DNA from: Gemmatimonadales bacterium
Lineage (GTDB): Bacteria; Gemmatimonadota; Gemmatimonadetes; Gemmatimonadales; GWC2-71-9
DNA length: 63,828 nt
Direction: 5' to 3'
Assembly (NCBI GenBank): GCA_039794085.1
Contig: JBDIWC010000022.1
Span: 1 to 63,828 of the forward strand
In this document: positions 21,588 through 45,969 of the stretch, one piece after another
Layout: each line of letters starts with the position of its first letter
Position numbering within the stretch: position 1 is the stretch's first letter
Program-made: the position numbers and the translations under genes
The notes under the pieces: generated by a model
Seen by the model: the letters and a program-made list of their open reading frames with translations, nothing else
What the model was told of the DNA's origin: nothing
Database searches by the model: none

Positions 21588-22286
21588 TCATTCTGATCCT
21601 CGTGACCGGGGTGCTGGCCCCATGGGGTGGCGGAAAAAGACCAGACAGGTCAGGGGATTGGAGGCCGGAATCGGGCCAGACCAAATGGAGGGGGGGGCGG
21701 CCAGCGGGCACGGAAGAAGGGGGGGTGAAGGGGGCGCCGGGGAAAACCAGCCTTCCCCAGCCCCAAAATTCCTCCCCCCCCCCCCCCCCGCAGTACGGGG
21801 CAGCGTGTCGGATTCCGGATTCATGCGGAGGGCGGAATCGGGGATAGGGCGGGCGGTAGCACCGGAGAGGAGCCCGTTCTGGAAGGCAATGGCCACCGCG
21901 TGGGAAAGGGTGTGGGCGCCGAGGCGGTGGCGTATCTGCCTGAAGTAATCCTGGACCGTCCAGGTGGTCAGGCGCAAGTCTCCGGCAATTTGTTTGGCGA
22001 GCCACCCCTGCGCAACCAGCGCCAGCACGTCGGTCAATCGCGGCGACAGCGACACCACCCGTCCCTCGGAGGCCCTGCCATCGAGGACTCCGTTGTGGAA
22101 GGCGATAGCCACTGCGTGAGGGAGCGTGCGAGCGCCAAGGCAGCGGCGGATGTCCCCGAAGGCATCCTGTACGACTTTCTTGTCCAACGCCAGATCGCCT
22201 GCGATCTGCTTCGCACCATTCCCCTGTGCGAGGAGATCGAGAACGCGCAGTAGCCGTTCGCGGGCTTGAGGTGGCAATCCCTCCAT
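21588..22286 (-). CDS. Tandem LuxR-type HTH regulator
   Basis: Two repeats of VL.L.AQG..AKQIAGDL.L....VQD.F..IR..LGA.TL.HAVAIAF.NG, with SD GAGGAGG. The C-terminus runs through G/C homopolymers and is unreliable. Confidence 0.85.
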   Translation of the reverse strand: MEGLPPQARERLLRVLDLLAQGNGAKQIAGDLALDKKVVQDAFGDIRRCLGARTLPHAVAIAFHNGVLDGRASEGRVVSLSPRLTDVLALVAQGWLAKQIAGDLRLTTWTVQDYFRQIRHRLGAHTLSHAVAIAFQNGLLSGATARPIPDSALRMNPESDTLPRTAGGGGGRNFGAGEGWFSPAPPSPPLLPCPLAAPPSIWSGPIPASNPLTCLVFFRHPMGPAPRSRGSE

Positions 22287-22671
22287 TGACCGTCCTCCTC
22301 TCACGGCACCCGTACGATTCCGATGAGGTGTTCTGTCGCGCGGTGTTCGAAGGGTGGATGGTACACAGGCGTCAGACAGGCAGTCAAGAGATCCAGCCAC
22401 AGACGGGATGGCGCCGCCCCGCAACAGTCATGCCAACGCGAGGCTTACTGGAACACCGACAAGTTGAGGGTGTCGGGATCTCGTGTCGTTCACCAAGTTG
22501 AGGGAGTCGCCGCTCCACTCTGAACGGCACGGGAATACCAGGTGAACGAGGAGGTTGACCCGCGGTACGGAGAAGTGCGCCCGCAAACGAGGGTGCACGA
22601 TCTGGTTTCGCTGCTTGTACCGGGCAATCGCAGACGGGTGTCTGCTTTCCTACTGATGGTTCGGAGATTTC

Positions 22672-23772
22672 ATGATCCACCGATTAGAATGGAGAATCGT
22701 GCGAGCAGTTGCCCATACGGGTGTTCTCGTTTCTCTGTATCTAGGACTCGGTTGTGTACAGGAACCTCGTGGTGCTCCCTCGGAAGAGGCCTGGCCCGAG
22801 TCGGTGGTGAACGCTCCTGTGGGGCACTTCACGGATGTGTTCACGTTGGCCGATTCGCTCACACTGGAGCAGCCACCGGATCAGCCATTGGTTCGGATAT
22901 CCGGGTTGGATGTCAACAGCGAGGGGACCATCGCCATCGCGGACGCATCCGAGGGCAACGTCAAGCTCTACGCACGTGACGGGCACCTCGTTTCCGTCAT
23001 TGGCCGAAAGGGCGAAGGTCCCGGTGAGTTTTCCCAGCCTCGCTTTCCTCGCTTCACGAAAGAAGATCAGTTGATTGTTGGCGACGCTCAGCTTGGCCGG
23101 GTCACATGGTTTGATAAGGAGGGCGGTTATGTGCGTTCCATCAACTTGGGTCTCGTGCCGATCATGGGGTTTCAGCTGACACATGATGGCTTCCTCGTTT
23201 CCGGGGTATCCGGTGATTCGACTGGCGATTCCTTCGCAGTGGCCAGAATCGATACTACCGGGGCCGTCCTGAGTCGACATATTCCCGTCCGTTTGATTGG
23301 ACCGTCTGCTTCCCCGGAATATCCGGGCTGGCGCTCGCTGACCCAGTACTGGGTGGCGGCGAGCGGTGACACCGCTCGAATTGTATCCACCCTCACCAAC
23401 CGACTGGTGTCGCTGCACCTCCCTTCAGGTTCCGTCCAAGTCTCGCAAGTAAACGTTCCTGAATATGTTCCTCCCTCCCCACCGGATGGTGGTCCATCGA
23501 TGACCGTGAAGGATCTGGTGTCCTGGCAGCGGGGGTTCCACATAGCAGCCACAGTCCTGGCCAGCCCTGAGTTGCTCCTGGTGCCCTTCGTGAAAGGGGT
23601 CCTGAACTATGGTGATCCGATGTTGCTTGCCGCCAGGACCAGTGACGGTAGATGGCGCACCTTGACAGGAGCACCTCCGCCGGTCCTAGTAACTGGGGAC
23701 TCCGTGTTCACGATCCTGCACCCCGAAGATCACTCCAACGTTACGCTTGGTGTCTACCGTGTTCAGCGGTAG
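22672..23772 (+). CDS. 6-bladed beta-propeller (NHL-like) lipoprotein
   Basis: Lipobox LGLGC, IAIAD...NVKLY and IGRKGEGPGEFSQP. Confidence 0.8.
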   Translation: MIHRLEWRIVRAVAHTGVLVSLYLGLGCVQEPRGAPSEEAWPESVVNAPVGHFTDVFTLADSLTLEQPPDQPLVRISGLDVNSEGTIAIADASEGNVKLYARDGHLVSVIGRKGEGPGEFSQPRFPRFTKEDQLIVGDAQLGRVTWFDKEGGYVRSINLGLVPIMGFQLTHDGFLVSGVSGDSTGDSFAVARIDTTGAVLSRHIPVRLIGPSASPEYPGWRSLTQYWVAASGDTARIVSTLTNRLVSLHLPSGSVQVSQVNVPEYVPPSPPDGGPSMTVKDLVSWQRGFHIAATVLASPELLLVPFVKGVLNYGDPMLLAARTSDGRWRTLTGAPPPVLVTGDSVFTILHPEDHSNVTLGVYRVQR

Positions 23773-23791
23773 GGCACGCGGGGGTCCGTTC

Positions 23792-24370
23792 GTGACGTTG
23801 TGGGCGATTGTTCTTCTCGCCTTGGGAGGATTGGGTTGTGATCGTGACTCAAGAGGGCCCTTCACGTCGCGGCCAGGGCATGGAGGAATCCAAGCCGGTG
23901 CCGCATGGGGTGAAGTGGGAGAGTCTCTGCACCGGGTACGTCTTCTCGGAAAGGCGGTTTCCTGCGGGACGGAGATGCGATCTCCCGCGACCGGTGTTTT
24001 GCTGATCACAGCCCAACAGTGTCTCAGTTGTCGGAGCGCGGGTGCCCTCATGCGGACAGCGGCGGCGGTGACGGAGGGACGGATGCTGATTGTTGTACCC
24101 GCATCTGATGCCTCTCTCGTCTGTGATTTTGTCCGGCAAGAAAAAGTGTCCCTTCCTGTAATCGAGCAACCTGACCATGCCTTCGGACCGCTCTTCAAGA
24201 CACATATGGTCCTCGCACTGTTGGGTGATTCGTCGTCCGGACACGAAGCCACAAGGATCGTGCTGCGTGATGGTCTTGACGGTATTCGTTGGTTGACAAC
24301 CACTCCTGATGTAGCTGAGGGTGTGGGGAGGCCGCAGGCAACAACAAACTCTAGCGTGGAGGAACGGTAA
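23792..24370 (+). CDS. Exported thioredoxin-like CxxC lipoprotein
   Basis: Lipobox LGGLGC, and a hydrophobic strand VLLIT followed by CLSC. The start is uncertain (23747 or 23792). Confidence 0.6.
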   Translation: MTLWAIVLLALGGLGCDRDSRGPFTSRPGHGGIQAGAAWGEVGESLHRVRLLGKAVSCGTEMRSPATGVLLITAQQCLSCRSAGALMRTAAAVTEGRMLIVVPASDASLVCDFVRQEKVSLPVIEQPDHAFGPLFKTHMVLALLGDSSSGHEATRIVLRDGLDGIRWLTTTPDVAEGVGRPQATTNSSVEER

Positions 24371-24585
24371 TGAAAGTCAATCTGCGAAAGAAGGGGGTCT
24401 TCGTGTTGGCCGTGTTGGGGACCCTCGGGGCCGGAAGTGGCGTCACGGAAAGCGAAGGGCAGGCACTCGAGGAAGGGCACATGCTCGTGATCGGCTGCAA
24501 TGCCGATGGGACTTATACCTGCGCCCAAATCGCCTGCGCTGAACCTCCCTACAACGGGCGCTGGTGCTGCTCGCAAGGAAAGTAG
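24370..24585 (+). CDS. Small secreted Cys-rich peptide A1 (71 aa)
   Basis: SD GGAGG, a basic and hydrophobic signal, and 5 Cys in GCNADGTYTCAQIAC...WCC. Confidence 0.75.
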   Translation: MKVNLRKKGVFVLAVLGTLGAGSGVTESEGQALEEGHMLVIGCNADGTYTCAQIACAEPPYNGRWCCSQGK

Positions 24586-24593
24586 GTGCAGCC

Positions 24594-24782
24594 ATGCGCA
24601 TCGTCCTTCCGTTGTTTCTCCTCGCTGTCGCCGTGCTCGTCACTGGTGTCGTGACAGCTCCCACGATGGTCGACGCTCAAGAACTTGAGCCAGACATGCG
24701 AGATCTCTACATCAAGTCGGGGAATCCAGATGGCTCATTCCTCTGTGCCCGGTGGTGTGGACTAACGGAACCCTGCTGTTAG
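24594..24782 (+). CDS. Small secreted Cys-rich peptide A2 (62 aa)
   Basis: Signal peptide ending VDA, and 4 Cys in GNPDGSFLCARWCGLTEPCC. It is paralogous to A1. Confidence 0.75.
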   Translation: MRIVLPLFLLAVAVLVTGVVTAPTMVDAQELEPDMRDLYIKSGNPDGSFLCARWCGLTEPCC

Positions 24783-24791
24783 CGTAGCGGG

Positions 24792-24832
24792 CCGTACGGT
24801 GTGCCCACTCCGGTAGTGGGCGCACCGGACGG
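24792..24832 (+). terminator. Stem-loop after the peptide genes
   Basis: Inverted repeat CCGTACGGTGTGCCCACT / AGTGGGCGCACCGGACGG. Confidence 0.6.
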
Positions 24833-25001
24833 TGATTTCACGCGGCATGAATGGCGAATCGTCTTTGGCCGGTACTGTCATGCTGCAAAAAAACACGCGG
24901 GTGCTCCGCCTGCGCCATAGGAGTATATTGCAGGCCGGAGGGGCCTGTCATTCTGGTTTCGGCAGAGCGCTGATGGTCGATCTTCCCTCCGGCGTCGCCC
25001 C

Positions 25002-25871: not shown

Positions 25872-25987
25872 TGTCGGCCCTGCTTCCCGCTGCCGGCCGG
25901 GTTCGAGCCCGGCCGGGTCTGTTGAGTTCCTTGTACCTTGTCTGACGAGCCAGGCCCTCACTTGGTTCCAAGCAAGGAACGGGCCGG

Positions 25988-27004: not shown

Positions 27005-27020
27005 GCGGGTCTCCCTGGTC

Positions 27021-33344: not shown

Positions 33345-34680
33345 GTCGTAGGGGCGGCTGTAGGGGCGGCTCTGTAGGGGTGGCTGTAGGGGCGGCTCGT
33401 GAGCCGCCCTCCGACGCAGTAGATGTCGTCATTGCGAGGAGGCGAAGCCGACGTGGCAATCCCGTGAGCCGAAGCCGGCGTGGAAAGACGAATGGCGGGC
33501 CTTCCTGCCGGAACAGTCATTGCGAGGAGGCGAAGCCGACGTGGCAATCTCGTGAACAGACGCAGGTTCGAGGAGACCGGCGGTTGGCCTTCGTGCTGTT
33601 CCCCGGCTGCACGGTTTTGGGTCGGCGGCGGTCAGGTGACCGTCTGGCCCTCCCCCCCTACTCCCCACTCCCCACTCCCTACTCTCTACTCCCCGCTCGT
33701 ATGAATGGCCGCCCTGCTTCGGGTTGATCCCTGTGGAACCACGAAAAGCACGAAAAGGCACGAAAGGTGGGACGGGCTCAGTTACATCTCTTGAGGCTGA
33801 CTGGTGGCTTGGTGGCGTGAGCCACCTCCTCTGGCCGAGCAAGGGGCGTGAGCCCCGGGACGTCCAAACTCAAAGGCTACGCGAGGGGGTTCCGCCTGAT
33901 GCGTCATCGGCAGGGCGGAGCTGGTTGGTCGCTCTCCGCGCGTTCACGTTGGCTGAAGCCAACGCGATGCACGCTGCGCGTGAGTGCCCTGAAGGGCAGA
34001 TGCCGGGTTGGCGCAGGAATGGCGCACGTTGGAGGGACGGTGTGGAACCACGAAAAGCACGAAAAGGCATGAAAGAGATGAGGGGTGGGCTTCGTACCGC
34101 TCTTCGTTTCGAGGAGCAGACTGGTGGCGTGCGCCTTTTCTGAACCACGGGGCTCACGCCCCGGGCTCGGCGGCGAGAGGCCGTTGACACGGCCGGGTGC
34201 ATCTTCCTGGTTTCGGATCTCCAGCCGTCGTTGCGAGGGGGCGAAGGCGATGCCGTCATCGGGATGGCGGTGGTCGGCACCTTCACGTTGGCTGAAGCCA
34301 ACGCGATGCACGCTGCGCGTGAGTGCCCTGAAGGGCAGATGCCGGGTTGGCGCAGGAATGGCGCACGTTGGAGGGACGGTGTGGAACCACGAAAAGCACG
34401 AAAAGGCACGAAAGAGATGAGGGGTGGGCTTCGTACCGCTCTTCGTTTCGAGGAGCAGACTGGTGGCGTGCGCCACCTCCTCTGGCCGAGCAAGGGGCGT
34501 CAGCCCCGGGACATCCACATCCACACTCAAAGGCTGAGCGAGGGGGTTCCGCCTCATTGGTCCTCGGCAGGGGAGGTTGTTGATGGCTCGTGGCGCGCTC
34601 ACGTTGGCTTCCGGCGTGGTACCTTCATGGCCCACTCCCCACTCCCCACTCCCCACTACCCACTCCCCACTCCCACCTGT
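33345..34680. repeat. Mosaic REP/MITE-like repeat cluster 1
   Basis: GTAGGGGCGGCT units, two GTCATTGCGAGGAGGCGAAGCCGACGTGGCAATC palindromes and three AACCACGAAAAGCACGAAAAGGCA modules. About 190 bp is duplicated at 339-bp spacing (33943 and 34282), and there are (CTCCCCA)n tracts. Confidence 0.9.
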
Positions 34681-35370
34681 CCGTCCGAATCCGCAGCGGC
34701 AGGCGGCCTCGAGGGGCCACTCCCAGCCGGGGCGGGCGTTGTAGGTGGCCAGGGTGAGGCCGAGGGCCCGGCGGACCCGCTGGGCGAGGCGGGTGGTGGT
34801 GGTCCCGGCGGTGTCGGCGAGCTGTCCGGTGTTATCCGCGAGGCGCGGAAGGATGGCGAGGTCGTGGAGGCGTACCAGATCGGAGGGTCGGCAGGAGAGG
34901 ATCTCGTCGACCCGGCGGTGGAGAGTGCGGCGGGACGCACCGTTGGTGCAGCCGTCCTTGTCGAGGCAGGCCATGAGGAGGGCTTCGATGACCTCGGCGG
35001 GCTGTTGAAGCCGGCGGGCGAGCCAGTGGGCCATGGTCGATGGTGCAACGGGGGGCCGCTGGTTCACCGATTGGCGGAGGGTGGCGGCGTCGGGGAGTTG
35101 GGCGAGGGGGTGCGGGAGGACGACGGACTGAGCGGCGCGGGCCTGGTCCAGAGGGGTGAGCAGGGAAGTCAGAGAGGCGGCCAGAGGCTCGGGGGTGACG
35201 GCGACCAAAGGAACCTAAGGGGGCAGGTCCTCCAGGGCGGTGACCAAGAGGGGGAAGCAGTCTGGTTCGGTAATGAGAGCGGCGGTGAGGGAGCCGAGGG
35301 CGAAGCGGGTGGCCGGGGTGATCGGAGTGGAGGTCTTGTCGTTCGGGCCCAGAACTGTCCAAGATCGCAT
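34680..35370 (-). pseudogene. Uncharacterised HTH-like regulator, copy B (nonsense mutation)
   Basis: Close paralog of 43086-43862. TAG at 35215-35217 corresponds to TGG (Trp) in the paralog, and the C-terminus runs into repeats. Confidence 0.75.
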
Positions 35371-35461
35371 CTCTCTCTTCCTCTTCCGGTGTCTGCCGAT
35401 AAGAGAAGCCTCTCAGAAGACGTGTTGTCAAGGAGGGAGAGGTTCTGAGGAGGGTGGTTAC

Positions 35462-35495
35462 CACCAGTTTTGGCCAGAAATGGCCGAAAGTGGTG
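35462..35495. promoter_or_regulatory. Conserved palindrome (candidate operator), locus B
   Basis: CACCAGTTTTGGCCA-GAAA-TGGCCGAAAGTGGTG, with 33/34 identity to 43960-43993. Confidence 0.65.
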
Positions 35496-35609
35496 TTGGC
35501 GGACCAGGTGGCAACCTCAATATTGATGCGCACATCGGAGGTCGGAGAATGCGACTTCGGGCTTCTGCTGCAACGTGACATCGAGAACCCTTTCCCAACG
35601 GAGGCGAAC

Positions 35610-35819
35610 ATGAGGTATCTGAAGTCCCCTCGGTTCTGGCTGGTCGCCGCACTGATCGCAGTCAACGCCGTGCTGTTTGAAGCACGCCCCGCCGAGGCCG
35701 ATGAACCCGGTTACTTCTTGGACTGCTACTGGGTTGGGACTCCTGCGGCGTTCTGCGACTACTTCCCGTTCACACACTGTACTCCAGCGACGTGCGCCCC
35801 AACGGGTCTGGAGCCATAG
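35610..35819 (+). CDS. Small secreted 4-Cys peptide B (69 aa)
   Basis: SD GGAGG and a signal ending AEA. The mature peptide is DEPGYFLDCYWVGTPAAFCDYFPFTHCTPATCAPTGLEP. Confidence 0.78.
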   Translation: MRYLKSPRFWLVAALIAVNAVLFEARPAEADEPGYFLDCYWVGTPAAFCDYFPFTHCTPATCAPTGLEP

Positions 35820-35863
35820 AGAGCCGCAGAAGCATCATCACGGTTCAATCTGGCGGGTCGGCA

Positions 35864-35892: not shown

Positions 35893-35946
35893 GACCACCT
35901 ATTCCTCGAATAGTCCTGTGCACAACAGGGATGGATCCGTCTACCT

Positions 35947-36501
35947 GTGCGACATCTAACTGCGGCCTTAATCCTTGTTCTCCTCGCGACCGCCACGGCT
36001 CAGTTGGTGGAGCGCTCTCAGTTCAGGCGATCCACAAGCGGGTTTGTTGCGCGCATGGTCGGGGAGACGCTCCCAGACGTCTCGCTGCGCCGGAGCGATC
36101 TTGGTGGGCCTCCGGAGAAGACCGTGAGTACAAGACTGAGCGACGCTGTAGGATCGAAATGTGCCATCGCCTTGTTCTTCAGCCCTACCTGTTTCGCGTG
36201 TGAGGCGATTGCTCCACTCTGGTCGGGTCGCAGTACCGTTCTTCTCGATGGGCAGAGGGCCACGGTTCTATGGATAGCGGTAACCAATGACGTGCAGGAG
36301 AGTGGAGCTTTCATGAGCAGGCATGGACTGAACGGGCCTCTCTACACTCTTCCCAGAATCTCTGATGTGTTTGACTTGGGTGTTCACGGTACTCCTACTC
36401 TCTATTTCATTGACCCAGACCCACGCTTGGAGGGTGTCTCGGATGGAAATCCGGAGACCCTTCCAACGCCACGCAATCCAGGTGCGTGCATCGAGGAATA
36501 G
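35947..36501 (+). CDS. Membrane-anchored TlpA/thioredoxin-like protein
   Basis: N-terminal TM, GETLPDV, FFSPTCFAC and GVHGTPTLYFID (cis-Pro loop). Confidence 0.85.
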   Translation: MRHLTAALILVLLATATAQLVERSQFRRSTSGFVARMVGETLPDVSLRRSDLGGPPEKTVSTRLSDAVGSKCAIALFFSPTCFACEAIAPLWSGRSTVLLDGQRATVLWIAVTNDVQESGAFMSRHGLNGPLYTLPRISDVFDLGVHGTPTLYFIDPDPRLEGVSDGNPETLPTPRNPGACIEE

Positions 36502-36825
36502 TGTTGGTCGACTTCACGCGGGCAGCGAGCGGCAAGTCCCAACCGAGTGATCCTGAAACGTATTGATCGCGTGTGAAGACGTTCTAGGTTTATGATCAGG
36601 CGCATGCCGAAGCGTCGGGGGATGGGGCTGTAGGCGCGGGATTTTACCGCCGACGGACCGGTGTACTCGTCACCAGCACCCCGGCCACATGGCCAACGGC
36701 AGGCTCGGCAATAAGTAGTTCACCCCGGTCAGCACCGATCCTTGGATCGCTCCGGAGGAACAAGAATGGTGGGAACGGACATGGTCAGGTGGCTCCGGGC
36801 AGTGTCGTTTGCTCCGGCAGCTCGC

Positions 36826-38175
36826 ATGCGTAGGTTGCTGAAGATGCTAAGCGTCGGGCTGTTGACAGCGCTATGGGCATGTGGCGGCAGGCAAGACGAG
36901 CCACCTGCACTCGCAGTGACCCTTAGCGACAGCAGCGGGATCAGGGTTGTCTCGCTCTCAACGTCCCTGAACAGCGTGGCATCACAAATGGAAGGGATCA
37001 AGACCCTGGCTCGTGATCGTGTGCTGGGAAGGGAGAGTCCAGGATTCACCGACGTGGCAGATGTGACCACGGTCGGCGACACGGTGGCGGTACTCGATCG
37101 AAACGATGGCGCGATCCACCTCTTCGGGCTTGGTGCGCAGACAGTCGAGCGCACCATCGGGAAGAAGGGAAGGGGCCCGGGAGAACTCATGATACCGTGG
37201 GGAGTGGAACGGGTAGGACCGTGGTTGGTGGTGGCGCAGGGAGTGGAGAGTGGGAACACTCTGACGATGTTCTCCACCGATGACGGGTCGGCGGTGGCGA
37301 CGAGTCCACCGGTGGCGGGGGACTGGGGACAGTTTCTGTTCCGTGGTCCAAACCTCAATCTCGACACACCCACCAAGGCGGGGATCGAGGATTGGGCCCG
37401 CCGCCTTGGCGCCTTCGACGATTCTACCCTGGCCGTGATGGTTCGGGAAAAAGAAGGGGTCGCTGAAGGAGGCGAGGCCATCGTGCCGCAGGTGGTGCAT
37501 ATCCTCCGGGTCCGGCTGCCCCTCCCCGGTGTGGTCGACACCCTGGCCACGCTCTCCGCTCCGCCCGTGGAATTGTGGAGGCCACCGGCGGGGCGCCGAC
37601 CCGCAGTGTTCCGTGAACCGCTGTACGGGCCCCGCCCGCTTTGGAGCGTAGGGGACGACTGGTATGCCCTCGCCGAAGGTGACGTGCCCGAGGTAAAGGT
37701 GTTCCGGAAGGATGGTGAGCCCTTGACTGTGATTCGGTGGCCCCGCGTGGACACTCCGATCTCCGAGGAGGACCAACTGACGGCGGCCGCCTTCACCGCC
37801 ACCTACAGCATCAGGAGTTCGGAGGAGGTGCGCAGGCAGCTTGAGGGCATGTCCGGCAGCGAGCGTGCGGAGGCACATCGCCTGTTCCTGCCGCTCATGA
37901 GCTTCGCGGGCAGTGCTCCGCAGATCACCGCGCTTTATGGGGCTGGGGAGTGCCTCTGGATGAGCGGGTTCAACCCCCGGGATTTTCCGGACGGGACGTC
38001 GCTCACCTGGGTCGGTATCAACGTTCACACCGGGGCCCTTATCCCGCCGGTCAGGATCCCCGGCACCGACGTGCGGGTCCGCCACTTCGATCGGCGTGCC
38101 GTGTACACGAAGGAGTTCACCGAGGAGGACGTGCAGACGGTCGTGCGTTACCCGATCCCCGGGGCGGCATGCTGA
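36826..38175 (+). CDS. 6-bladed beta-propeller lipoprotein
   Basis: Lipobox LWAC, DSSGIRVV, IGKKGRGPGEL and C-terminal VVRY. Confidence 0.78.
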   Translation: MRRLLKMLSVGLLTALWACGGRQDEPPALAVTLSDSSGIRVVSLSTSLNSVASQMEGIKTLARDRVLGRESPGFTDVADVTTVGDTVAVLDRNDGAIHLFGLGAQTVERTIGKKGRGPGELMIPWGVERVGPWLVVAQGVESGNTLTMFSTDDGSAVATSPPVAGDWGQFLFRGPNLNLDTPTKAGIEDWARRLGAFDDSTLAVMVREKEGVAEGGEAIVPQVVHILRVRLPLPGVVDTLATLSAPPVELWRPPAGRRPAVFREPLYGPRPLWSVGDDWYALAEGDVPEVKVFRKDGEPLTVIRWPRVDTPISEEDQLTAAAFTATYSIRSSEEVRRQLEGMSGSERAEAHRLFLPLMSFAGSAPQITALYGAGECLWMSGFNPRDFPDGTSLTWVGINVHTGALIPPVRIPGTDVRVRHFDRRAVYTKEFTEEDVQTVVRYPIPGAAC

Positions 38176-38383
38176 ACGAGCCGTCGGGCGAAGGACAGAG
38201 CATCCTCAACGGACTGGCCTCGATCATGTGCACGGCGATTGAGCCGTAGAGGTTCAAGCAGTAGAACACGCGTGTCGGGTGTGCCACTACATCTCCGTGT
38301 CCTCTGGTTGCGGCTCGTGTCTAGGTAAGTATACAATGCCACAATGCGGCAAGTTGTTCCGCTGCGTTCACAGGATGGAAAGC

Positions 38384-39513
38384 ATGCAAGGCTTGTGCTC
38401 CGGCAGAATGCTCATGGTTGCAGGGGTTACCGGATTGGTACTGGTGACTCCGGGTCTGCTTCTCGCCAGACAGCACACCGCCCCCGATCTCGTCGCCGTG
38501 CCGATCGTGCTCGACACGATCGGCCCGACCCAGGGAACCATCGCGGTCTCCACTCGCGGCATCCTCGCCTTCACGCCCCCAGCCTGGGAGGGTGAGACGA
38601 CGGCGATGCTACGCGTTCTGGATCCGGAGGGAGGAACCCGTTTTCTTGGTGTGTCCACCGGCAAGGGCCCCGGTGAACTCAGTGTGGTTCTCCGGTGGTT
38701 CTTCGAAGGAGACTCCCTCCTCCACGCGTTCGATCCCACCACGTTGCGCATCTCAACCTTCACGGCGGCCGGGGAGTTCCGTCGTTCTCATCAACTTTCC
38801 CAGGTTGGGCTCCCGGTCCGTATAGCCGACGACTCGGTGGACCTCGCTCGCGGTGCCGGCCTGCCCTGGAGCCTGGTTCGGCTCTCCCTGACCACCGGCG
38901 GGAACCGGACACTTCTGGACGCATCGGCCCCCGGTTTCGAGCGTCTCTTCCCGCTCGAACCGGGCACGAATGCAATCGGAAGCCGCCGCCAGCCGGCGGT
39001 GCTTCCTCCAGACCGGAGTTCCACCGAAACGGTGCTTGCCAACGACCTGACCTATTCCATGATTGCGTTCGACGCCGGAGGTACCACACGGCGCGAGGGC
39101 GGCCGATCCGTGCGACCCCGGAAGCGCTCCCCGCAGGAGCTGGAGCGGGCGATCGAACCCGGAAGCAGGCTGAGCGGATGGGTCGTGGTAAGGTCTGGGT
39201 GGACCAGCGTGCTCGGACCCTGCGGACGGAGGATCTCGCCTTCTTTCATTTCACTCACGGTCTCGCGCGGGACAGGGCAGGACGCATCTGGGTGGTCGGA
39301 ATCGCGGAAGGGGGGGAGGAGGTGTTCGCGGATGTGTTCTCGCCGGATCTGACGTTCCTGAAGCGCTACGTGATCCCCTGCCGCGCTTTCGGCAATGGAT
39401 GGGACTTGAACGGGGACTGGCTGGTGCTGCTCTGCGGCCGCGATCCAGAAACATCCCGGAGCACGATCCGGTTGTTCAAAGTGGTGGAGGGGAAAGGGGC
39501 CGGGGGACGATAG
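38384..39513 (+). pseudogene. 6-bladed beta-propeller protein, frameshifted near 39157
   Basis: GKGPGEL lies in one frame and DRAGRIWV...DVFSPD in another. Adding one A (GAAACC) restores AIETRKQAERM, so this may be a sequencing error. Confidence 0.7.
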
Positions 39514-39574
39514 AGCCGGATCCATTCCCCAGGATTGGAAGCTATATGTCAGCGCTTCGCGACGGGCCATGAAT

Positions 39575-40080
39575 GGCCGGATACCGTCACCGCAATTGTT
39601 GTGGAACCACGAAAAGCACGAAAAGGCACGAAAGGTGGGACGGGCTCAGTAACGGCACTTTGAGGTGCATGCCGGTGGCGTGAGCCACCTCACCTGGCCG
39701 AGCAAGGGGCGTCAGCCCCGGGATATCCTAAACTCAAAGGCTGAGCGAGGGATTCCGCCTGGTTCGTCATCGGCCGGGCGGAGGTAATTGATGGCTCTTG
39801 GCGCGTTCACGTTGGCTGAAGCCAAACGCGATGCACGCTGCGCGTGCGTGCCCTGAAGGGCAGGGTCACCGGAGGTGTACCGGGCGGGTTCATCCCGCGT
39901 GATCACGGACGGATAGCCGCTCGGCGACATCCATGGATGGCCGGATGCCGTCATCGCGACTGTTGTGGAACCACGAAAAGCACGAAAAGGCACGAAAGCG
40001 AAGAGGGGCAGGCTCCGTAACATGCATCGAAGTGCACCCGGTGGCGTGACCCATCTCACCTGGCGGAGCAAGGGGTGTCC
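39575..40080. repeat. Mosaic repeat cluster 2
   Basis: Same modules as cluster 1: two AACCACGAAAAG modules, GGCGTGAGCCACCTC..CTGGCCGAGCAAGGGG and TTCACGTTGGCTGAAGCCAA. Confidence 0.88.
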
Positions 40081-40169
40081 GCTGCCTGATGCCTAAACTC
40101 GGCGCTTCGCGACGGGCTATGAAGGAGGGATGTGGCCACCGCGACTATGCGCCACCATGAAAGGAATGA

Positions 40170-41261
40170 ATGCGTCATCGACTGATGTACTTGAGCCTCG
40201 CACTGGCGCTTCTGGGCGGCCTCGGAGGATGCGACGGGGAGGATCGCGAAAATGGAGCCGCGACCGATCCGGTGGCGCGTGATCCGATCATGGTGGTGGA
40301 TGGGCAGCAGTTCGATGACGTGTTCTCGGTGTACGATACGCTGGAACTGGAAGAGCCCCGAGGGGTGCTGTCCGTAGCCCCGATGGTGTCCCTCGATTCC
40401 GGGGGAGGGTTCCTTGTGGCTGATGCCGCGGAGCACCAGGTGCGAGTGTACTCTCCCCAGGGGAAGCTCCGCGAGGTGTTCGGTGAAGGGACCGCCCGGG
40501 TGGACTCCATCAAGTCACCGGGACGCGCTCTCCGCCTGCCCGGTGGAGACATTCTCGTGGTCAACCTGGCCGGCCCTCTGACCATCCTCCCGGCTCGTCA
40601 GGAGGAACCATCCCGGTTCATTCCCCGATCGCTCCGTACGGCGCGCCACGCCGAGATCCTGAACGACCACGAAGTCCTCTTGGTCGGCTCCGACACAAAT
40701 CCGGTAGCGGCCACGCTGTTTCGCCTCGATTTGGCGAATGGCCAATACTCAGAGAAGTACTTGGCACCGCCAGCGCATCTCGACAAGTGGGTGACGACCT
40801 TCATGTCCGCGGTCCGGACCTCTCGGTGGGGAAACCGCATCGCCGCAGTCCACATGCTGTCGGATACGCTCGTGATCTTCGACCTTGCCGGACGAGAGCA
40901 GAAGCGGGTTCCCATTCCCATCGATCCGTTCATGGCTCCAGAGGGCCCCCTCCCGGACGTGACGACGGCAGCCGAACAGCATGCCTGGATGGCGCAGTTC
41001 ACGATGGTGATGAACCTGTTCTGGATCGAGGACAACAAGCTCATCGTCCAATGGGCCAAGGGCCTGGAGAACGGGCTGGATGCCGATATGGGAATCCTGC
41101 AGATGGACACGACAGGCGTCAGGGCGTGGGCCATCGCGCCCTCCCCGACGCTCGTTGCCGTGCGGGGAGAGGAGTTCTTCTTCCGGAATCCGCGCAACCA
41201 TGAACCGAACCGATGGTGGGTGGCGAAGCGGCGAGCAGGTCCGGAGGAACCTCCATCATGA
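40170..41261 (+). CDS. 6-bladed beta-propeller lipoprotein
   Basis: Lipobox LGGC, and FDDVFSVYDTLELEEP resembling FTDVFTLADSLTLEQP of 22672; also FLVAD..HQVRVY. Confidence 0.78.
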   Translation: MRHRLMYLSLALALLGGLGGCDGEDRENGAATDPVARDPIMVVDGQQFDDVFSVYDTLELEEPRGVLSVAPMVSLDSGGGFLVADAAEHQVRVYSPQGKLREVFGEGTARVDSIKSPGRALRLPGGDILVVNLAGPLTILPARQEEPSRFIPRSLRTARHAEILNDHEVLLVGSDTNPVAATLFRLDLANGQYSEKYLAPPAHLDKWVTTFMSAVRTSRWGNRIAAVHMLSDTLVIFDLAGREQKRVPIPIDPFMAPEGPLPDVTTAAEQHAWMAQFTMVMNLFWIEDNKLIVQWAKGLENGLDADMGILQMDTTGVRAWAIAPSPTLVAVRGEEFFFRNPRNHEPNRWWVAKRRAGPEEPPS

Positions 41262-42451
41262 ACCTCCGGTGGTTGGCCGGAGCAGTAGGGGCCGCTGCTC
41301 TCTCAGCGTGTGAGATGCCTCCATCCGGGGACCGAGACTGGACCATTCGTGACAGTGCCGGTGTCACCATTGTCTCCAATCACCCCTCGGATCTGCCCCA
41401 GGGCTGCATCGAGATCGCAACCCCCGCCGAGGTTGTCATTCGGTCAGGAGACGGGAGCGACCCGGGCACCCTGCCCGCACTGATCCAAGTTCGTGGAGGG
41501 ACGGTGCTTTCGGACGGGCGCATTGCCGTCCTGGCCGCCGGTACGTGGCAGGTTCTCTTTTACGATGCGGGAGGCCAGTTCCAGAATGCCACCGGCCGCA
41601 ATGGCCGTGGCCCGGGGGAGTTCCTCACTCCTTCTTGGCTCGGCCACGGTGGCGCCGATACCCTGTTCGTCTGGGACGCTGCCCAGCGCCGGCTCACCGT
41701 GCTGGATGGCACGGGGACGCTCCTGACGACACAGAAGGTGGATGGGGCGGCGGAGCATCCCGACATCGGCGGCAGATTCGGGGACGGCTCCTTCCTGATG
41801 CGTCCCGGTGGGGTGGGGTTCTTTCCCCGGACATCTGGCGTGGTGCGACTGGATGAGACCTACGGGCGGCACGACCTGGCCACCGGGACGACAACCCTTC
41901 TGGCCGAAGGCCAGTCATGGGAGACAGGTCTCAGTGAGACAAGCGGGCGCTACGGCCTGTCATTCGGCAAGACGACCGTGGTGACGGTGGGCAGGGACCA
42001 CCTGGTTCTCGCAGACACCGGCGAGCCCGAGCTGCGGTTCCACGACCTCAAGGGACAGGTTCGCCGGGTCGTCCGGTGGACTTCACCGCCGATCCCGGTC
42101 ACGGCGCAGGACCGGGCGGATTATGTGGCGTACTATGCCGCGGAGGCTCCACGATTCGCTCCTCCACCCGATGCGCAGTTTGCGGGCGAGCGGCCGCACC
42201 TGACCTCGATCGCCACAGACCGCGTGGGGTGGATCTGGGTGAAGAGGTATTCAGGAGGTTGGGAGGAACCCTCCCCCTGGCTTGTGTTCGATGAACGTGG
42301 CGTGCTGCAATGCGAAGTCGAGGCCCCGCCTCGGCTCACGGCGTTGGAGATCGGCAGCGACTATCTGCTCAGCCTGCTGCGCGACTCGACCGGGGAGGAG
42401 ACCGTTATGCGCTGGGGGCTCCGTCGCACGCCGAAGACGGCGGAGCAATAG
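41258..42451 (+). CDS. 6-bladed beta-propeller lipoprotein
   Basis: Lipobox LSAC, RDSAGVTIV, GRNGRGPGEF, DRVGWIWV and WLVFD. Confidence 0.8.
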   Translation: MNLRWLAGAVGAAALSACEMPPSGDRDWTIRDSAGVTIVSNHPSDLPQGCIEIATPAEVVIRSGDGSDPGTLPALIQVRGGTVLSDGRIAVLAAGTWQVLFYDAGGQFQNATGRNGRGPGEFLTPSWLGHGGADTLFVWDAAQRRLTVLDGTGTLLTTQKVDGAAEHPDIGGRFGDGSFLMRPGGVGFFPRTSGVVRLDETYGRHDLATGTTTLLAEGQSWETGLSETSGRYGLSFGKTTVVTVGRDHLVLADTGEPELRFHDLKGQVRRVVRWTSPPIPVTAQDRADYVAYYAAEAPRFAPPPDAQFAGERPHLTSIATDRVGWIWVKRYSGGWEEPSPWLVFDERGVLQCEVEAPPRLTALEIGSDYLLSLLRDSTGEETVMRWGLRRTPKTAEQ

Positions 42452-42504
42452 GTGAGGTGGTAAGCCCAAGCTTGGCGTTTTGCGACGGGACATGGCTGGC
42501 GCGA

Positions 42505-43140
42505 GGTTGTCATCGCGAGGCGGCGCATGGAGTTTGCCACGGGCCCTTCGGGCCCTCGCAACAAGGCCGACGTGGCAATCTCGTGAGCCGAAGTTGGCCT
42601 GGAGAGACGAATTCCGGGCCTACCTGCCGGGACAGACGCCGCCATCGGGAAGGCGGTGGTTGGCGCGTTCACGTTGGCTGAAGCCAACGCGATGCACGCT
42701 GCGCGTGAGTGCCCTGAAGGGCAGATGCCGGATTGGCGCAGGCGTACGGCGGGAGGGTCCGGCACTTCAGTGCCGGTCACCGGAGGTGTACCGCGCGGGA
42801 TTCATCCCGCGTGATCACGGGCGGATAGCCGCTCGGCGACATCCATGGGCCCAAGTAACAGCTTCTTGAGTTGCACTCGGTGGCGTGAGCCACCTCCTCT
42901 GGCCGAGCAAGGGGCGTGAGCCCCGGGATATCCAAACTCAAAGGCCGAGCGAGGGGTTCCGCCCGATGCGTCATCGGCAGGGCGGAGGTGGTTGAGGGCT
43001 CCTGGCGCGTTCACGTTGGCTTCCGATGCGGTACCTTCATGGCCCACTCCTCACTCCTCACTCCTCACTCCTCACTCCTCACTCCTCACTCCTCACTCCC
43101 CACTCCCCACTCCCCACTCCCCACTCCCCACTCCCCACTG
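42505..43140. repeat. Mosaic repeat cluster 3 ending in (CTCCTCA)n(CTCCCCA)n heptamers
   Basis: Shares modules with clusters 1 and 2, and has about 13 heptamer units at 43045-43138. Confidence 0.9.
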
Positions 43141-43862
43141 TCTGCCCGGCCGAATCCGTGGCGGCAGGCGGCCTCGAGGGGCCACTCCCAGCCGGGCCGG
43201 TCGTTGTAGCCGGCCAGGGTGAGGCCGAGGGCCCGGCGGATCCGCTGGGTGAGGCGGGTGATGGTGGTCCCGGCACTGGCGGCGAGCTGTCCGGTGTTGT
43301 CGGCGAGGCGCGGAAGGAAGGCGAGGTCGTGGAGGCGCACCAGATCGGAGGGTCGGCAGGAGAGGATCTCGTTGACCCGGCGGTGGAGAGTGCGACGGGA
43401 CGCGCCGTTGGGGCTGCCGTCCTTGTCGAGGCAGGCCATGAGGAGGGCTTCGATGACCTCGGCGGGCTGCTGGAGTCGGCGGGCGAGCCAGGGCTGCTGG
43501 AGTCGGCGGGCGAGCCAGCGGGCCATGGTCGAGGGTGCAACGGGGGGTCGCTGGTTCACCGATTGGCGGAGTGTGGCGGCGTCGGGGAGTTGGGCGAGGG
43601 GGTGCGGGACGACGACGGACTGGGCGGCGCGGGCCTGCTCCAGGGGAGTGCGCAGGGCCGTCAGGGAGGTGGCCAGAGGCGCGGGGACCACGGCGAGCAG
43701 GGGGACCCAGGGGGGCAGGTCCTCCAGGGCGGCGACGAGGAGGGGGAAGCAGTCCGGTTCGGTGACGAGAGCGGCGGCGAGGGAGCCGAGGGCGAAGCGG
43801 GTGGCCGGGGTGATCGGAGTGGAGGTCTTGTCGTTCGGGCCCAGCATCATCCAGGATCGCAT
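43086..43862 (-). CDS. Uncharacterised HTH-like regulator, copy C
   Basis: Open frame with AraC-like segments ASRRTLHRRV and LAASAG...RLTQRIRRALG. It has a 27-bp in-frame duplication (43464-43517) and stops inside the heptamer tract. Confidence 0.6.
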   Translation of the reverse strand: MRSWMMLGPNDKTSTPITPATRFALGSLAAALVTEPDCFPLLVAALEDLPPWVPLLAVVPAPLATSLTALRTPLEQARAAQSVVVPHPLAQLPDAATLRQSVNQRPPVAPSTMARWLARRLQQPWLARRLQQPAEVIEALLMACLDKDGSPNGASRRTLHRRVNEILSCRPSDLVRLHDLAFLPRLADNTGQLAASAGTTITRLTQRIRRALGLTLAGYNDRPGWEWPLEAACRHGFGRADSGEWGVGSGEWGVGSEE

Positions 43863-43959
43863 CTCCATCTTCCTTCCCTGAAAAACGGCCTGACGATGGG
43901 AGGAAACCTCTCAGAAGACACGTTGTCAACGAAGAAGGGGATCTGAAGAGGGTGGTTAC

Positions 43960-43993
43960 CACCAGTTTTGGCCAGAAATGGCCGAAACTGGTG
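43960..43993. promoter_or_regulatory. Conserved palindrome (candidate operator), locus C
   Basis: CACCAGTTTTGGCCA-GAAA-TGGCCGAAACTGGTG. Confidence 0.65.
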
Positions 43994-44111
43994 TTGGCCT
44001 TCGCACCAGGTGGCTCTATCGTTTAGTCGCGTGTTGGAGAGCAACTTGAAGGAATGACTGCAATGGCCAACCCCGGCCGCAGTTCACCAACCCACGTTGA
44101 ATGGAGGTCCG

Positions 44112-44323
44112 ATGAGAGTGTCCAGATTCTTCCTGGCAGTTACTGTCCTGGCGGTTCTCGGTTTTGGAGCTACTCCCACGCAGGAGGCCAACGCAGAGGG
44201 TGACTGGCGCATCCGCGATGACGGGCTCCTTGGAACTGCAAGTTCAGCTGCGGTTCGAATGGTCCCTCGGTGTTTCCGTGGTGCGCGTGTACGGTCCTCC
44301 CGACTATCATCGTCGAAGGCTGA
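44112..44323 (+). CDS. Small secreted 4-Cys peptide C (70 aa, hidden by a 1-nt frameshift)
   Basis: SD GGAGG and a signal ending ANA. Adding one G at 44223-44225 gives EGDWRIRDDGAPWNCKFSCGSNGPSVFPWCACTVLPTIIVEG*. Confidence 0.68.
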
Positions 44324-44366
44324 TCCGGAAAGGCGACTCGCGACACATGACGAAGAAGGACAAGAG

Positions 44367-44855
44367 ATGACTTGTTGCGGGGATGGGCCGCTCGGATTTC
44401 CCAAGGGACTCTTGGCGGCCCTGTGCCTTCTCAGTTCGGCGGTGGCATCATGCAACTCTGTTGACGTCACGGAATTCGACCTACCCGCATGGGTTGAAGG
44501 CTCGCCGGAACTTGCGAGGCTTGTCAAGGCACACGATACCGTTGTGGTTCTGTTGTACTCTCCGGAAGCCTGCTTTTCGTGCGGGGGCGGCATGGCGCGA
44601 TGGGGGAAACTGAAGAAGGAAGGTCGGCAGATTCATCTAGGCCTGACGCGGCAACCGACAAGTGTGGAGGATCGGAGGTTGAAGCTGGCCAAAGTGCAGT
44701 TTGATTTCGTCCTTTCCAACAGGTCGCTACCCGAGGCCATGGATCTCTTGTTCATTGCGGGTTCTCTCGTCAGGGCTGACACGCTCGCCGGTGCCAGACC
44801 CAGGAGCATATTGGAACTCCTCGACACCACTGAGGAGTATGGCGAATCTCGCTAG
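44367..44855 (+). CDS. Exported thioredoxin-like CxxC lipoprotein
   Basis: Lipobox VASC and VVVLLYSPEACFSC. Confidence 0.65.
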   Translation: MTCCGDGPLGFPKGLLAALCLLSSAVASCNSVDVTEFDLPAWVEGSPELARLVKAHDTVVVLLYSPEACFSCGGGMARWGKLKKEGRQIHLGLTRQPTSVEDRRLKLAKVQFDFVLSNRSLPEAMDLLFIAGSLVRADTLAGARPRSILELLDTTEEYGESR

Positions 44856-45969
44856 ACTCTGCTGTTCGTGGTTCTGTCTCTGCGCGTTGGGGGTCGGAAC
44901 AATGGCGTGTGGGGATACCACGGGCAACGAGGTCGTGCTTCTGGAGCCGACGCGCGAGATCTTCCTCGACGAGCCGGACTCGCTTCCCGTTGGCATGCCG
45001 GGATACCTGGCGGTGGCAGGAAACGGTGCCTTCTATCTGTCCGACGCGATGAATCATCGGGTCGTCAGCTATGATCCCAGGGGAACTCCCCGCGGCACCT
45101 TCGGTCGCGCCGGCCGGGGGCCCGGGGAGTTTACCGGAGCGGGATTTGTTGCGCTCTTTGGTGATACACTGGCCGCGATGGATCACGCCAGTCGCCAGAT
45201 GTTCCTCTTCGATCGCCGAACAGGCGATCTTGTCCGGAGCGTCGGGATGCCGGGCCATCAGCTCTATTCGGCCGCAACCGATGGCGGCACTGCATGGCTC
45301 GGCCTCATCGGTGCACTGGATCAAGGAGACTTTCGTGCCGTGGTCAAGTGGAATCTCGCCACGGACTCCCTGGAGACTCTCCTGCAAGCACCGGCAGAGT
45401 ACTATGCCGTCAGCCCCTCCCCCCTGTGGATTTTTGCCTCTGCCTACCTGACGGAGTGGAACGATACCCTCGCCGTCCTCTTTGGAGCGCGCAACACACT
45501 GGAGCTCTTCACGAGTGACGGGACACTGCTTTCGATTGTCGAACTCCCTGTCCTGCATCGCCGGGGAGTGCCCGAGGATCGGAAGCGTGTCCTCACGCGA
45601 CCGACGGCGAAGGAGATTCCAACTCTCACATACGAAGCAGTACAAGGGAGCCTGTCGTCTCCTCGTGCGATAGGTCGTCTTCCGGATGGAACCATCGCGG
45701 TGGTTCATGCGGACCAGACGGCGGAACGAGGGAAGGTCACGGCACAGCTCTGGCTTACGCTGCTCTCGCTGGATGGTCGCTGGTCATGCGCAGACCGGCA
45801 GGTTCCCGCGTCAAGCGAGGGAAGGCCGGCTGTTGCGATGCTGAGGGATTCACTGTATGTCGTGGATCAAGTGCTCCTGGACAACGATGCGCGAACCCGG
45901 CTTCGGGTCTTCCCCATCGACGACCGTGGGTGTGCAGGGTCATGGAACACCCCGGAGGGTGGCTCCTAG
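44839..45969 (+). CDS. 6-bladed beta-propeller lipoprotein
   Basis: SD GAGGAG, lipobox TMAC, FYLSD...RVVSYD and FGRAGRGPGEF. Confidence 0.8.
   Translation: MANLARLCCSWFCLCALGVGTMACGDTTGNEVVLLEPTREIFLDEPDSLPVGMPGYLAVAGNGAFYLSDAMNHRVVSYDPRGTPRGTFGRAGRGPGEFTGAGFVALFGDTLAAMDHASRQMFLFDRRTGDLVRSVGMPGHQLYSAATDGGTAWLGLIGALDQGDFRAVVKWNLATDSLETLLQAPAEYYAVSPSPLWIFASAYLTEWNDTLAVLFGARNTLELFTSDGTLLSIVELPVLHRRGVPEDRKRVLTRPTAKEIPTLTYEAVQGSLSSPRAIGRLPDGTIAVVHADQTAERGKVTAQLWLTLLSLDGRWSCADRQVPASSEGRPAVAMLRDSLYVVDQVLLDNDARTRLRVFPIDDRGCAGSWNTPEGGS

Follow-up and report, generated by a model that had tools for sequence, protein, structure and literature searches.

Layout of the window

The sequence analysed here, referred to as the window, is the 63,828-nt contig JBDIWC010000022.1 (contig C22) of a Gemmatimonadales bacterium (assembly GCA_039794085.1), whose genome measures 4.16 Mb in 115 contigs and has a GC content of 66.8%. 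Most Atlas neighbours of one protein of the window belong to Gemmatimonadota. It carries three loci, A, B and C, which are copies of one cassette composed of an exported cysteine-rich peptide, a thioredoxin-like protein and a propeller lipoprotein. A preliminary description of this DNA had reported a gene set present three times. All gene sets were found at the coordinates given there in the list of open reading frames (ORFs), and the recurrent module is real; the family is however present about 24 times in the genome, and not three times. Only locus A is intact within the window, while B and C are damaged. Since the regulator and one propeller of locus B and the peptide gene of locus C are broken, both loci look like decaying or reshuffled copies. 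The genes and features of the three loci are the following, with signal peptides and lipoboxes judged by simple in-house rules instead of SignalP.

Locus A
21588-22424, minus strand: A regulator, LuxR/GerE type with two helix-turn-helix (HTH) modules, divergent from the cassette (Pfam GerE)
22672-23772, plus strand: A_prop, NHL/DUF5128-type propeller lipoprotein, lipobox GLGC, GEGPGE (Pfam DUF5128 and family hidden Markov model, HMM)
23747-24370, plus strand: A_cxxc, exported CLSC protein, lipobox GLGC, likely of thioredoxin fold; overlaps the end of A_prop
24370-24585, plus strand: A_pep1, 71 aa, signal peptide and 5 Cys; start overlaps the A_cxxc stop by one base
24594-24782, plus strand: A_pep2, 62 aa from the ATG (72 aa from GTG 24564), signal peptide and 4 Cys (ORF)

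Locus B
34624-35370, minus strand: B regulator, AraC-like 'BC' family, damaged (family profile match with one in-frame TAG)
35405-35500, no strand: intergenic block between regulator and cassette, common to B and C (90% identical), holding a motif of ~21 nt
35610-35819, plus strand: B_pep, 69 aa, signal peptide and 4 invariant Cys, ending in LEP ('ALEP' subfamily; ORF and alignment)
35947-36501, plus strand: B_cxxc, exported CFAC thioredoxin-like protein, cleavable signal ending ATA-Q (PDB, Pfam)
36826-38175, plus strand: B_prop1, propeller lipoprotein, lipobox WAC, GRGPGE (family HMM E 1.8e-45)
38279-39513, plus strand: B_prop2, propeller of another subfamily, frameshifted at ~39140-39205 (blastx)
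40170-41261, plus strand: B_prop3, propeller lipoprotein, lipobox GGC, without GxGPGE, orphan duplicate (paralogy)
41258-42451, plus strand: B_prop4, propeller lipoprotein, lipobox SAC, GRGPGE, orphan duplicate; start overlaps the B_prop3 stop

Locus C
43086-43868, minus strand: C regulator (C_reg), 'BC' family, N-terminal alpha/beta domain and likely AraC-type DNA-binding domain (AlphaFold2 model)
44112-44323, plus strand: C peptide gene, broken over two frames
44367-44855, plus strand: C_cxxc, CFSC thioredoxin-fold lipoprotein, lipobox ASC (AlphaFold2 and Foldseek)
44839-45969, plus strand: C_prop, propeller lipoprotein, lipobox MAC, GRGPGE; overlaps the end of C_cxxc by 17 nt (HMM E 1.3e-35)

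Lipoboxes were thus assigned to A_prop, A_cxxc, B_prop1, B_prop3, B_prop4, C_cxxc and C_prop. One to four propellers per locus, most with a lipobox and GxGPGE, had been announced: GxGPGE is indeed found in five of the six propellers of the window, B_prop3 being the one without it, but B_prop2 proved to be frameshifted. Ribosome-binding sites of the GGAGG type precede the starts of A_pep1, B_pep and the C peptide. Scans for promoters and terminators returned no more sites than in shuffled sequence.

As already proposed, the loci are less GC-rich (0.59-0.65) than their flanks (0.66-0.73; genome 0.668). The genes between and beside them are housekeeping genes coding for a rhomboid protein, Ddl, a PLP/CBS enzyme, a TonB_C protein, MutS, a SPOR protein and HolA. 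Among the genes in, between or beside the loci, no radical S-adenosylmethionine enzyme, no modification enzyme of ribosomally synthesised and post-translationally modified peptides (RiPPs), no C39 peptidase and no ATP-binding cassette (ABC) exporter was seen, in agreement with the preliminary description. The loci therefore lack what defines class II bacteriocin or RiPP clusters, i.e. a leader together with a C39/ABC exporter or a modification enzyme.

Gene content of the three loci

The operon of locus A is tightly packed, with junctions that overlap or are only a few bases apart. Its regulator matches Pfam GerE over two stretches (E 1.4e-14, 53.9 bits, cut-off 23.5) and belongs to the LuxR/GerE type. 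A_prop matches Pfam DUF5128 (E 1.8e-7, 31.1 bits, cut-off 22.9) as well as the family HMM (E 2.3e-35). No Pfam match was obtained for A_cxxc. In an alignment of 12 CxxC proteins a hydrophobic strand comes before its CxxC, and the best matches of the 12-member profile in the PDB were all thioredoxins, at weak E-values (>=0.016). Its neighbours in the Atlas belong to TlpA/Redoxin clusters (0.91-0.92), which is taken as a lead only. A_pep1 is preceded by GGAGG 7 nt upstream, displays a Cx4C spacing, is net acidic and has no family match; A_pep2 is 28% identical to it (E 0.01). The region 20800-25000 has no DNA match in two genomes of the same genus (one 95%, the other 90% complete).

Locus B is composite, with three pieces. 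The first is a complete cassette which is conserved in the same-genus genome G001. There, the ortholog of B_pep is 71% identical with all Cys kept and adjoins the regulator and the CxxC gene, and the DNA of B_prop1 is 75% identical. B_cxxc matches TXNDC5/PDI in the PDB (E 1.4e-6) and Pfam AhpC-TSA below the cut-off (E 9.4e-4); its four paralogs in the genome are all located within cassettes. The B_prop1 subfamily is always found with ALEP peptides, which adjoin all three paralogs of B_prop1. The regulator of this piece carries the TAG near its 5' end, and an ORF at 33904-35208 continues from it into repeats. The second piece is the broken propeller B_prop2, whose blastx matches to paralogs on contigs C5 and C35 are split over two frames; it has neither a peptide nor a CxxC gene of its own, and no DNA match in G001. 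The third piece, past an interspersed repeat, is a propeller pair duplicating that of a complete cassette on contig C53. B_prop3 is 83% identical to C53 8068-9162 and matches Pfam NHL below the cut-off (E 0.019). B_prop4 is 79% identical to C53 9114-10352 and scores well with the family HMM (E 2e-83) and below the cut-off with DUF5128 (19.5 bits); GGAGG stands before its ATG at 41258.

In locus C the peptide is split. The frame from 44112 onwards encodes the signal-peptide part; the part with four Cys, which resembles the peptide of contig C31, covers 44225-44323, with a one-base shift at the G run 44223-44225. DNA matching the window was found in four runs, as contigs from one sample labelled hot-springs metagenome. 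At the break site the contigs of three separately assembled runs of this sample showed 0 gaps; as separately built contigs show the same break, the frameshift is not likely to be an artefact of this assembly. The announced peptides of 62-71 aa with 4-5 Cys are consequently present in loci A and B, but not as an intact gene in C. The AlphaFold2 model of C_cxxc (predicted local distance difference test score, pLDDT, of 74) places CFSC between strand 63-69 and helix 79-89, that is at the helix start, as in a thioredoxin fold. Foldseek returned the Bacillus thiol-disulfide oxidoreductase 4nmu first (E 6.3e-4), followed by ResA and DsbE, with a probability of 1.00 and template modelling (TM) scores of 0.4-0.5. 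C_cxxc has four paralogs in the genome, all within cassettes. The closest paralogs of C_prop, on contigs C31, C93 and C35, are all accompanied by C-type CxxC proteins and related peptides. The DNA of the C regulator is 91% identical in G001, while C_prop and the cassette part of locus C have no DNA match in G001 or in G002, the second same-genus genome.

Expansion in the genome

The extent of the family was determined over the whole genome, using an iterated HMM for the propellers and a crude rule for the small ORFs. This rule was applied to all ORFs and retained 1410 candidates, namely those of 40-130 aa which have a start codon and display a charged N-terminus and a hydrophobic stretch of 10 residues. 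Sixty-eight propeller ORFs were detected at E <=1e-5 (67 of them below 1e-10), which form 54 clusters. Candidates with at least 4 Cys past the hydrophobic stretch were counted by their position: there are 27 within 3 kb of a propeller, 55 at a greater distance and 3 inside a propeller gene. The 3-kb zone makes up 7.1% of the genome and contains 27 of the 82 such ORFs located outside propeller genes (binomial p 6.6e-12). Compared with candidates with fewer Cys, the Fisher odds ratio was 5.7 (p 5.9e-10). Small signal-peptide ORFs with four or more Cys are thus enriched about five-fold in the vicinity of propellers. By eye, about 24 of the 27 near candidates look real, and the majority of the 55 distant ones have the appearance of wrong-frame ORFs. 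Among the distant candidates, two are clear family peptides with no propeller within reach (C30 10485-10727 and C1 129464, in the region C1 128684-129682), and the one on contig C1 adjoins a homolog of the CxxC protein of the contig C27 cassette which has kept a single Cys.

A set of 26 peptides in about 24 cassettes was curated by eye; the broken peptide of locus C was left out of the alignment. Of these cassettes, 19 contain a CxxC protein of 150-240 aa and 22 a propeller. Among the five without a CxxC protein, two are cut by contig ends and one carries a homolog with a single Cys. In A and C, and also on contigs C35, C69 and C92, the CxxC gene overlaps the propeller gene.

Proteins with a CarboxypepD_reg domain (~270-340 aa) also recur beside cassettes, on contigs C103, C104, C71, C30, C35, C69, C41, C108, C1 and C89; 14 of the 47 ORFs of this type lie within 3 kb of a curated peptide. 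They were considered as TonB-dependent exporters of the peptides, which was set aside: their match to Plug is weak, no barrel was matched and none of them occurs in the window.

Features and co-variation of the three components

The mature peptides had been described as unrelated between loci, which is too strong. The spacing Cx4C is present in 20 of the 26 curated peptides (13 of 60 non-curated candidates), and 16 of them end in Pro, ten as LEP (7 of 60 non-curated). The number of Cys is even in 24 peptides and 25 are net acidic. AxA-like signal-peptidase sites precede the mature parts. Four Cys never vary within the ALEP subfamily, where two more are gained or lost together. None of the 26 peptides matched a Pfam or NCBIfam family, and the profile of the ALEP peptides found nothing below E 0.6 among PDB sequences. 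The ALEP subfamily is rare, with 17 members in 5.8 billion clustered proteins and nine representatives in a set of 1.84 billion, two of which are unrelated repeat proteins.

For the CxxC proteins, an exported thioredoxin-like nature had been proposed, and this is borne out by the TXNDC5/PDI match in B, by the ResA/TlpA-type model in C and by DsbA-like proteins in other cassettes. BLAST detected no similarity between the CxxC proteins of the three loci. Four cassette CxxC proteins elsewhere in the genome are plain DsbA/Thioredoxin_4 proteins (Pfam E 1e-17 to 7e-23).

A profile of 20 propellers matched the PDB entries of TRIM71 (E 1e-45), Thin (1e-45), PAL (1e-10) and the exported protein 4raa (5e-6). 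The family is therefore of the NHL/DUF5128 type by profile, although B_prop1 and C_prop have no direct Pfam match and most propellers of the genome remain below the DUF5128 cut-off. Across the 20 sequences, near-invariance is restricted to the Gly, Pro and Glu columns of one NHL motif. As this gives no catalytic signature, a binding scaffold fits better than an enzyme, and a peptidylglycine-lyase-like activity was considered and set aside, the family having no conserved catalytic residues. Propellers of the peptide-linked subfamilies keep two invariant Cys.

The three components co-vary. The closest paralogs of a peptide-linked propeller carry the same type of peptide and the same CxxC family. 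ALEP peptides are found with propellers of the B_prop1 type in four cases out of four, and the WWCYNG-, YWV- and IIVxG/LEP-type peptides behave likewise. A maximum-likelihood tree of 64 propellers was built by a quick rather than a full search, after dropping three shorter or weaker rows, and has many long branches. On this tree, peptide linkage required 14 changes, compared with about 20 after shuffling, and only one of 500 shuffles was as low. Whole clades hold only lone propellers. The polymorphic module proposed previously is thus recovered, with peptide, CxxC and propeller subfamilies co-varying as cognate partners would.

Regulators and intergenic DNA

A divergent HTH regulator had been assigned to each locus. 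Such a gene is present in all three, but that of B is damaged and the three represent two unrelated families, LuxR/GerE in A and BC in B and C. Across the cassettes of the genome, regulators vary between the LuxR type (A), the BC family, extracytoplasmic function (ECF) sigma factors (C35, C71, C79) and the AraC type (C41, C108). The B and C regulators are about 83-84% identical (84% over 259 aa). The duplication between B and C comprises the regulator and ~130 bp upstream of it (87-92% identity), while the cassettes downstream belong to unrelated subfamilies.

The BC regulators had no Pfam or NCBIfam model above cut-off; HTH_18 was reached at E 0.017-0.023 and ~15 bits (cut-off 33.6). The AlphaFold2 model of C_reg (pLDDT 76) has a helical C-terminal domain, and its residues 120-232 align with DNA-binding domains of the AraC family (3mkl, 3lsg, 5chh, 3mn2 and MarA) at middling Z-scores of 5.1-5.6, and Foldseek gave AdpA with a probability of 0.80. 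In the neighbouring Atlas cluster (score 0.92), 75% of the members carry HTH_18. The BC profile found nine matches in the genome, two of which are the halves of C_reg, eight in G001 and weaker relatives in nine other genomes; in total the family was matched in 11 of the 301 genomes of the class that were searched. C_reg displays a perfect tandem duplication of nine residues (WLARRLQQP, twice) which is absent from the eight other aligned family members. Tandem arrays of the 7-mers CACTCCC/CACTCCT at 34619-34701 and 43038-43162 lie at the 3' ends of both BC-type regulator genes, where they encode the GEWGVGS-like tails common to all members of the BC family.

The intergenic block shared by B and C contains the ~21-nt motif ATGGCC(G/A)AAA(G/C)TGGT(G/A)(T/C)TGGC, at 35475-35500 and 43973-43998. 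The motif also occurs on contigs C4 and C104, and weaker versions stand at the other four cassettes among the eight intergenic regions aligned. It is a candidate promoter or operator.

Occurrence in related genomes

The propeller family was found in 21 of 31 relatives searched, with at least 61 members in G001 (among the best 62 candidates scored), 22 in G002 and 0-23 elsewhere. The 27 propeller loci (264 kb) of two near-complete genomes from another family yielded four peptide candidates, of which three are convincing, and 20 control loci (200 kb) gave one, which is not. In other genera (G301, G121, G247, G019 and G023), propellers were found beside tandem 6-Cys ORFs with signal peptides. Close to a BC-like regulator, G301 carries a C-type CxxC protein, propellers and four tandem 6-Cys peptides; near such regulators, G121 displays three Cys-rich peptides among propellers and G247 one 6-Cys peptide. 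These finds indicate that the trio exists outside the genus, though most propellers there are alone. The enrichment of Cys-rich peptides around propellers that the preliminary description had predicted therefore holds in this genome, but in others the propellers mostly stand without them.

Tandem arrays of paralogous Cys-rich ORFs between propellers were located at G301:C2 15673-16663 (four ORFs of 6 Cys each) and at G121:C3 8599-9086 (two ORFs of 4 Cys each). Their Cys patterns and C-termini (STxC or RP) differ from those of the peptides studied here.

Surrounding elements

The cassettes are flanked and separated by a family of interspersed repeats at 33428-34600, 39567-40117, 42547-43085 and 45970-46300, made of several blocks of 50-200 nt which are 72-98% alike and have matches on many contigs. 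These repeats may be where the cassettes recombine. A gene for a Phd/YefM-type antitoxin is located just right of locus C (46295-46645). The left edge of island A (20268-21500) carries a Uma2 endonuclease gene and a Fic-domain gene (20848-21297) that is truncated and covers only the C-terminal portion of the Fic profile; a full-length relative of this Fic-domain gene lies near a cassette on contig C35.

Proposed function of the cassette

Proteins combining a thioredoxin-like and an NHL domain offer the closest comparison. NHLRC2, known from animals and some bacteria, and SOQ1 of the plant thylakoid lumen resemble the cassette in that a TlpA-like thioredoxin module is associated with an NHL propeller, six-bladed in those proteins, outside the cytoplasm. 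In NHLRC2, both domains form a conserved cleft which was proposed as a binding site, and no conserved operon partner was found for the bacterial homologs (PMC6107167). For SOQ1, disulfide exchange has been proposed as the activity (bioRxiv 10.1101/2021.03.16.435614); its target is the lipocalin LCNP, and methionine sulfoxide reduction is a further proposal. There are also differences. The two modules form one chain in NHLRC2 and SOQ1, but are encoded by separate and often overlapping genes in all three loci here. The motif of the fused proteins is CC(I/V)NC (PMC6107167), compared with CLSC, CFAC and CFSC. Their C-terminal beta-stranded domain was not seen here, and only in the cassettes is a candidate substrate, the Cys-rich peptide, encoded next to the pair.

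As the thioredoxin and NHL modules are fused in NHLRC2 and SOQ1, and are here encoded by separate, often overlapping genes which diversify together with the peptide, the pair is read as a two-subunit, peptide-specific disulfide machine. The cassette would then be a split NHLRC2/SOQ1-like pair handling the disulfides of its private peptide, an interpretation to which we give an even chance. A Sec-exported, Cys-rich mini-protein would be encoded together with its own thioredoxin-fold protein and its own NHL propeller lipoprotein. The regulator would switch the operon on and the peptide would serve as substrate of the pair, the propeller probably acting as the substrate-holding subunit and the CxxC protein as the catalyst, and the pair would form or rearrange the disulfides of the peptide in the periplasm. 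The even Cys counts, and the gain of extra Cys in pairs within the ALEP family, are a signature of disulfides. The folded acidic peptide may play a role in bacterial competition, in signalling or in the inhibition of envelope proteins.

Several observations weigh against this interpretation. The CxxC proteins are a mixture of DsbA-like proteins, which are oxidising, and TlpA/ResA-like ones, which are usually reducing; one relative has a single Cys, and the evidence for the thioredoxin fold of A_cxxc is weak. The propeller profile matches NHLRC2 (6g7w) at a non-significant E of 0.18, and a fusion of thioredoxin and propeller was absent from the two longer C_prop relatives, which is a weak test. 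Most propellers stand alone, and the family as a whole thus does not need a neighbouring peptide. This concerns ~30 of the 54 propeller clusters of the genome, ~24 of the 27 loci in the two near-complete genomes of another family, and 19 of the 20 best-scoring propeller loci of five other genomes. Finally, the interpretation does not explain why each peptide would have a foldase of its own.

Two other known systems share part of this architecture. In Bacteroidales, six-bladed propeller lipoproteins of the DUF5128 family (PF17170) pair with small proteins of the NVEALA family (PF14055). A_prop belongs to the same Pfam family, and in both cases propeller lipoproteins lie beside small exported proteins. 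The peptides studied here, however, display Cx4C and often end in LEP rather than carrying NVEALA. The link to NVEALA that had been suggested does not hold at the sequence level: PF14055 is matched by none of the 26 peptides at E up to 10, and the motif is absent. Bacteriocin loci such as that of sublancin, with BdbB, are also known to include a dedicated thiol-disulfide oxidoreductase. The pediocin locus similarly encodes PedC, a dedicated thioredoxin-like helper, together with the small disulfide-bonded peptide that is exported. This putative thiol-disulfide oxidoreductase is reported to improve the potency of pediocin when co-produced (PMC4919988). Loci of the pediocin type are Gram-positive and display a double-glycine leader, an ABC/C39 exporter and a small immunity protein, whereas the cassettes have Sec signals, no exporter, a propeller lipoprotein and acidic peptides, in a host which is likely diderm.

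Alternative explanations

The comparison with bacteriocins leads to a first alternative, in which a bacteriocin-like peptide would be matured by the CxxC protein and the propeller would be its immunity lipoprotein, the lone propellers being orphan immunity genes. We judge this rather unlikely. It would account for the abundance of intact orphan propellers and of tandem propeller arrays, and for the turnover between species seen in low-GC islands, the A and C cassettes being unmatched in the two same-genus genomes. The polymorphic and co-varying parts, the very narrow peptide families (17 in 5.8 billion proteins, nine in 1.84 billion representatives) and the precedent of bacteriocin loci with their own thiol-disulfide oxidoreductase (PMC4919988) point in the same direction. 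The export route is however absent, with no outer-membrane exporter, lysis gene or ABC/C39 transporter in the window, and nearly all peptides (25 of 26) are net acidic, unlike most membrane-active or typical cationic antimicrobial peptides. The overlap of the propeller and CxxC genes also suggests a complex of these two proteins rather than a free-standing immunity protein. In a broader reading, which is likewise doubtful, the trio would form a new class of self-contained, fast-diversifying envelope cassettes, each making a Sec-exported, disulfide-knotted acidic mini-protein with a two-part thioredoxin-NHL machine of its own; the mini-proteins would be weapons or identity tags between related bacteria and the lone propellers a repertoire of immunity proteins or decoy binders.

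Signalling is quite improbable as the primary function. In this scheme the peptide, periplasmic or released, would act as a cue for its cognate propeller, with feedback to the divergent regulator or to the ECF sigma factor of other loci. The presence of a dedicated regulator in each cassette, be it AraC-like BC, of the LuxR type, an ECF sigma factor or AraC, the conserved motif in the DNA between regulator and cassette and the co-variation of the parts would all suit such a circuit. No path from the periplasm to the regulator is visible, since the BC and LuxR-type regulators are not predicted to be membrane proteins (topology was not formally tested) and neither a sensor kinase nor an anti-sigma gene was seen. 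Moreover, about 24 private signals in a single genome would be hard to rationalise.

Equally hard to favour is a scheme centred on the propeller, as a working envelope binder or enzyme for another substrate, with the peptide as its subunit, inhibitor or metal helper and the CxxC protein keeping the redox state. Most propellers are without peptides, those of the peptide-linked subfamilies keep their two invariant Cys, and elsewhere in the genome CarboxypepD_reg/Plug-like proteins are repeatedly found next to cassettes, all of which would fit. Against it, the propeller family has no conserved catalytic residues and the peptides, apart from their Cys, are too variable for a shared cofactor role.

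A chance neighbourhood, with small ORFs that are not genes next to unrelated CxxC and propeller envelope proteins, is very improbable: high-GC DNA does yield many spurious ORFs, as the wrong-frame appearance of most of the 55 distant candidates illustrates, but the enrichment (p ~1e-11), the ribosome-binding sites before the peptide starts, the 71% identical ortholog with all its Cys, the even Cys counts and the same trio in other genera speak against it.

Implications

No description of a cassette combining peptide, thioredoxin and propeller was found in the literature and curated families searched. New here are the scale of the expansion, the features shared by the peptides, the three-part co-variation, a private regulator family with a duplicated promoter block, and the decay and reshuffling of the cassettes. 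The presence of 67 propellers and ~24 cassettes in 4.2 Mb, with turnover at the species level, points to a strong diversifying pressure on an envelope system.

From bacteria to humans, the pairing of a thioredoxin with an NHL propeller has been conserved. The essential NHLRC2 carries mutations in FINCA disease, and photoprotection in plants is under the control of SOQ1. The cassette peptide is a concrete candidate client for this pairing. If the doubtful reading as self-contained, fast-diversifying envelope cassettes is true, the cassettes would also show that the job of the thioredoxin-NHL pair of NHLRC2 and SOQ1 in animals and plants is to grip and re-oxidise a small Cys-rich client.

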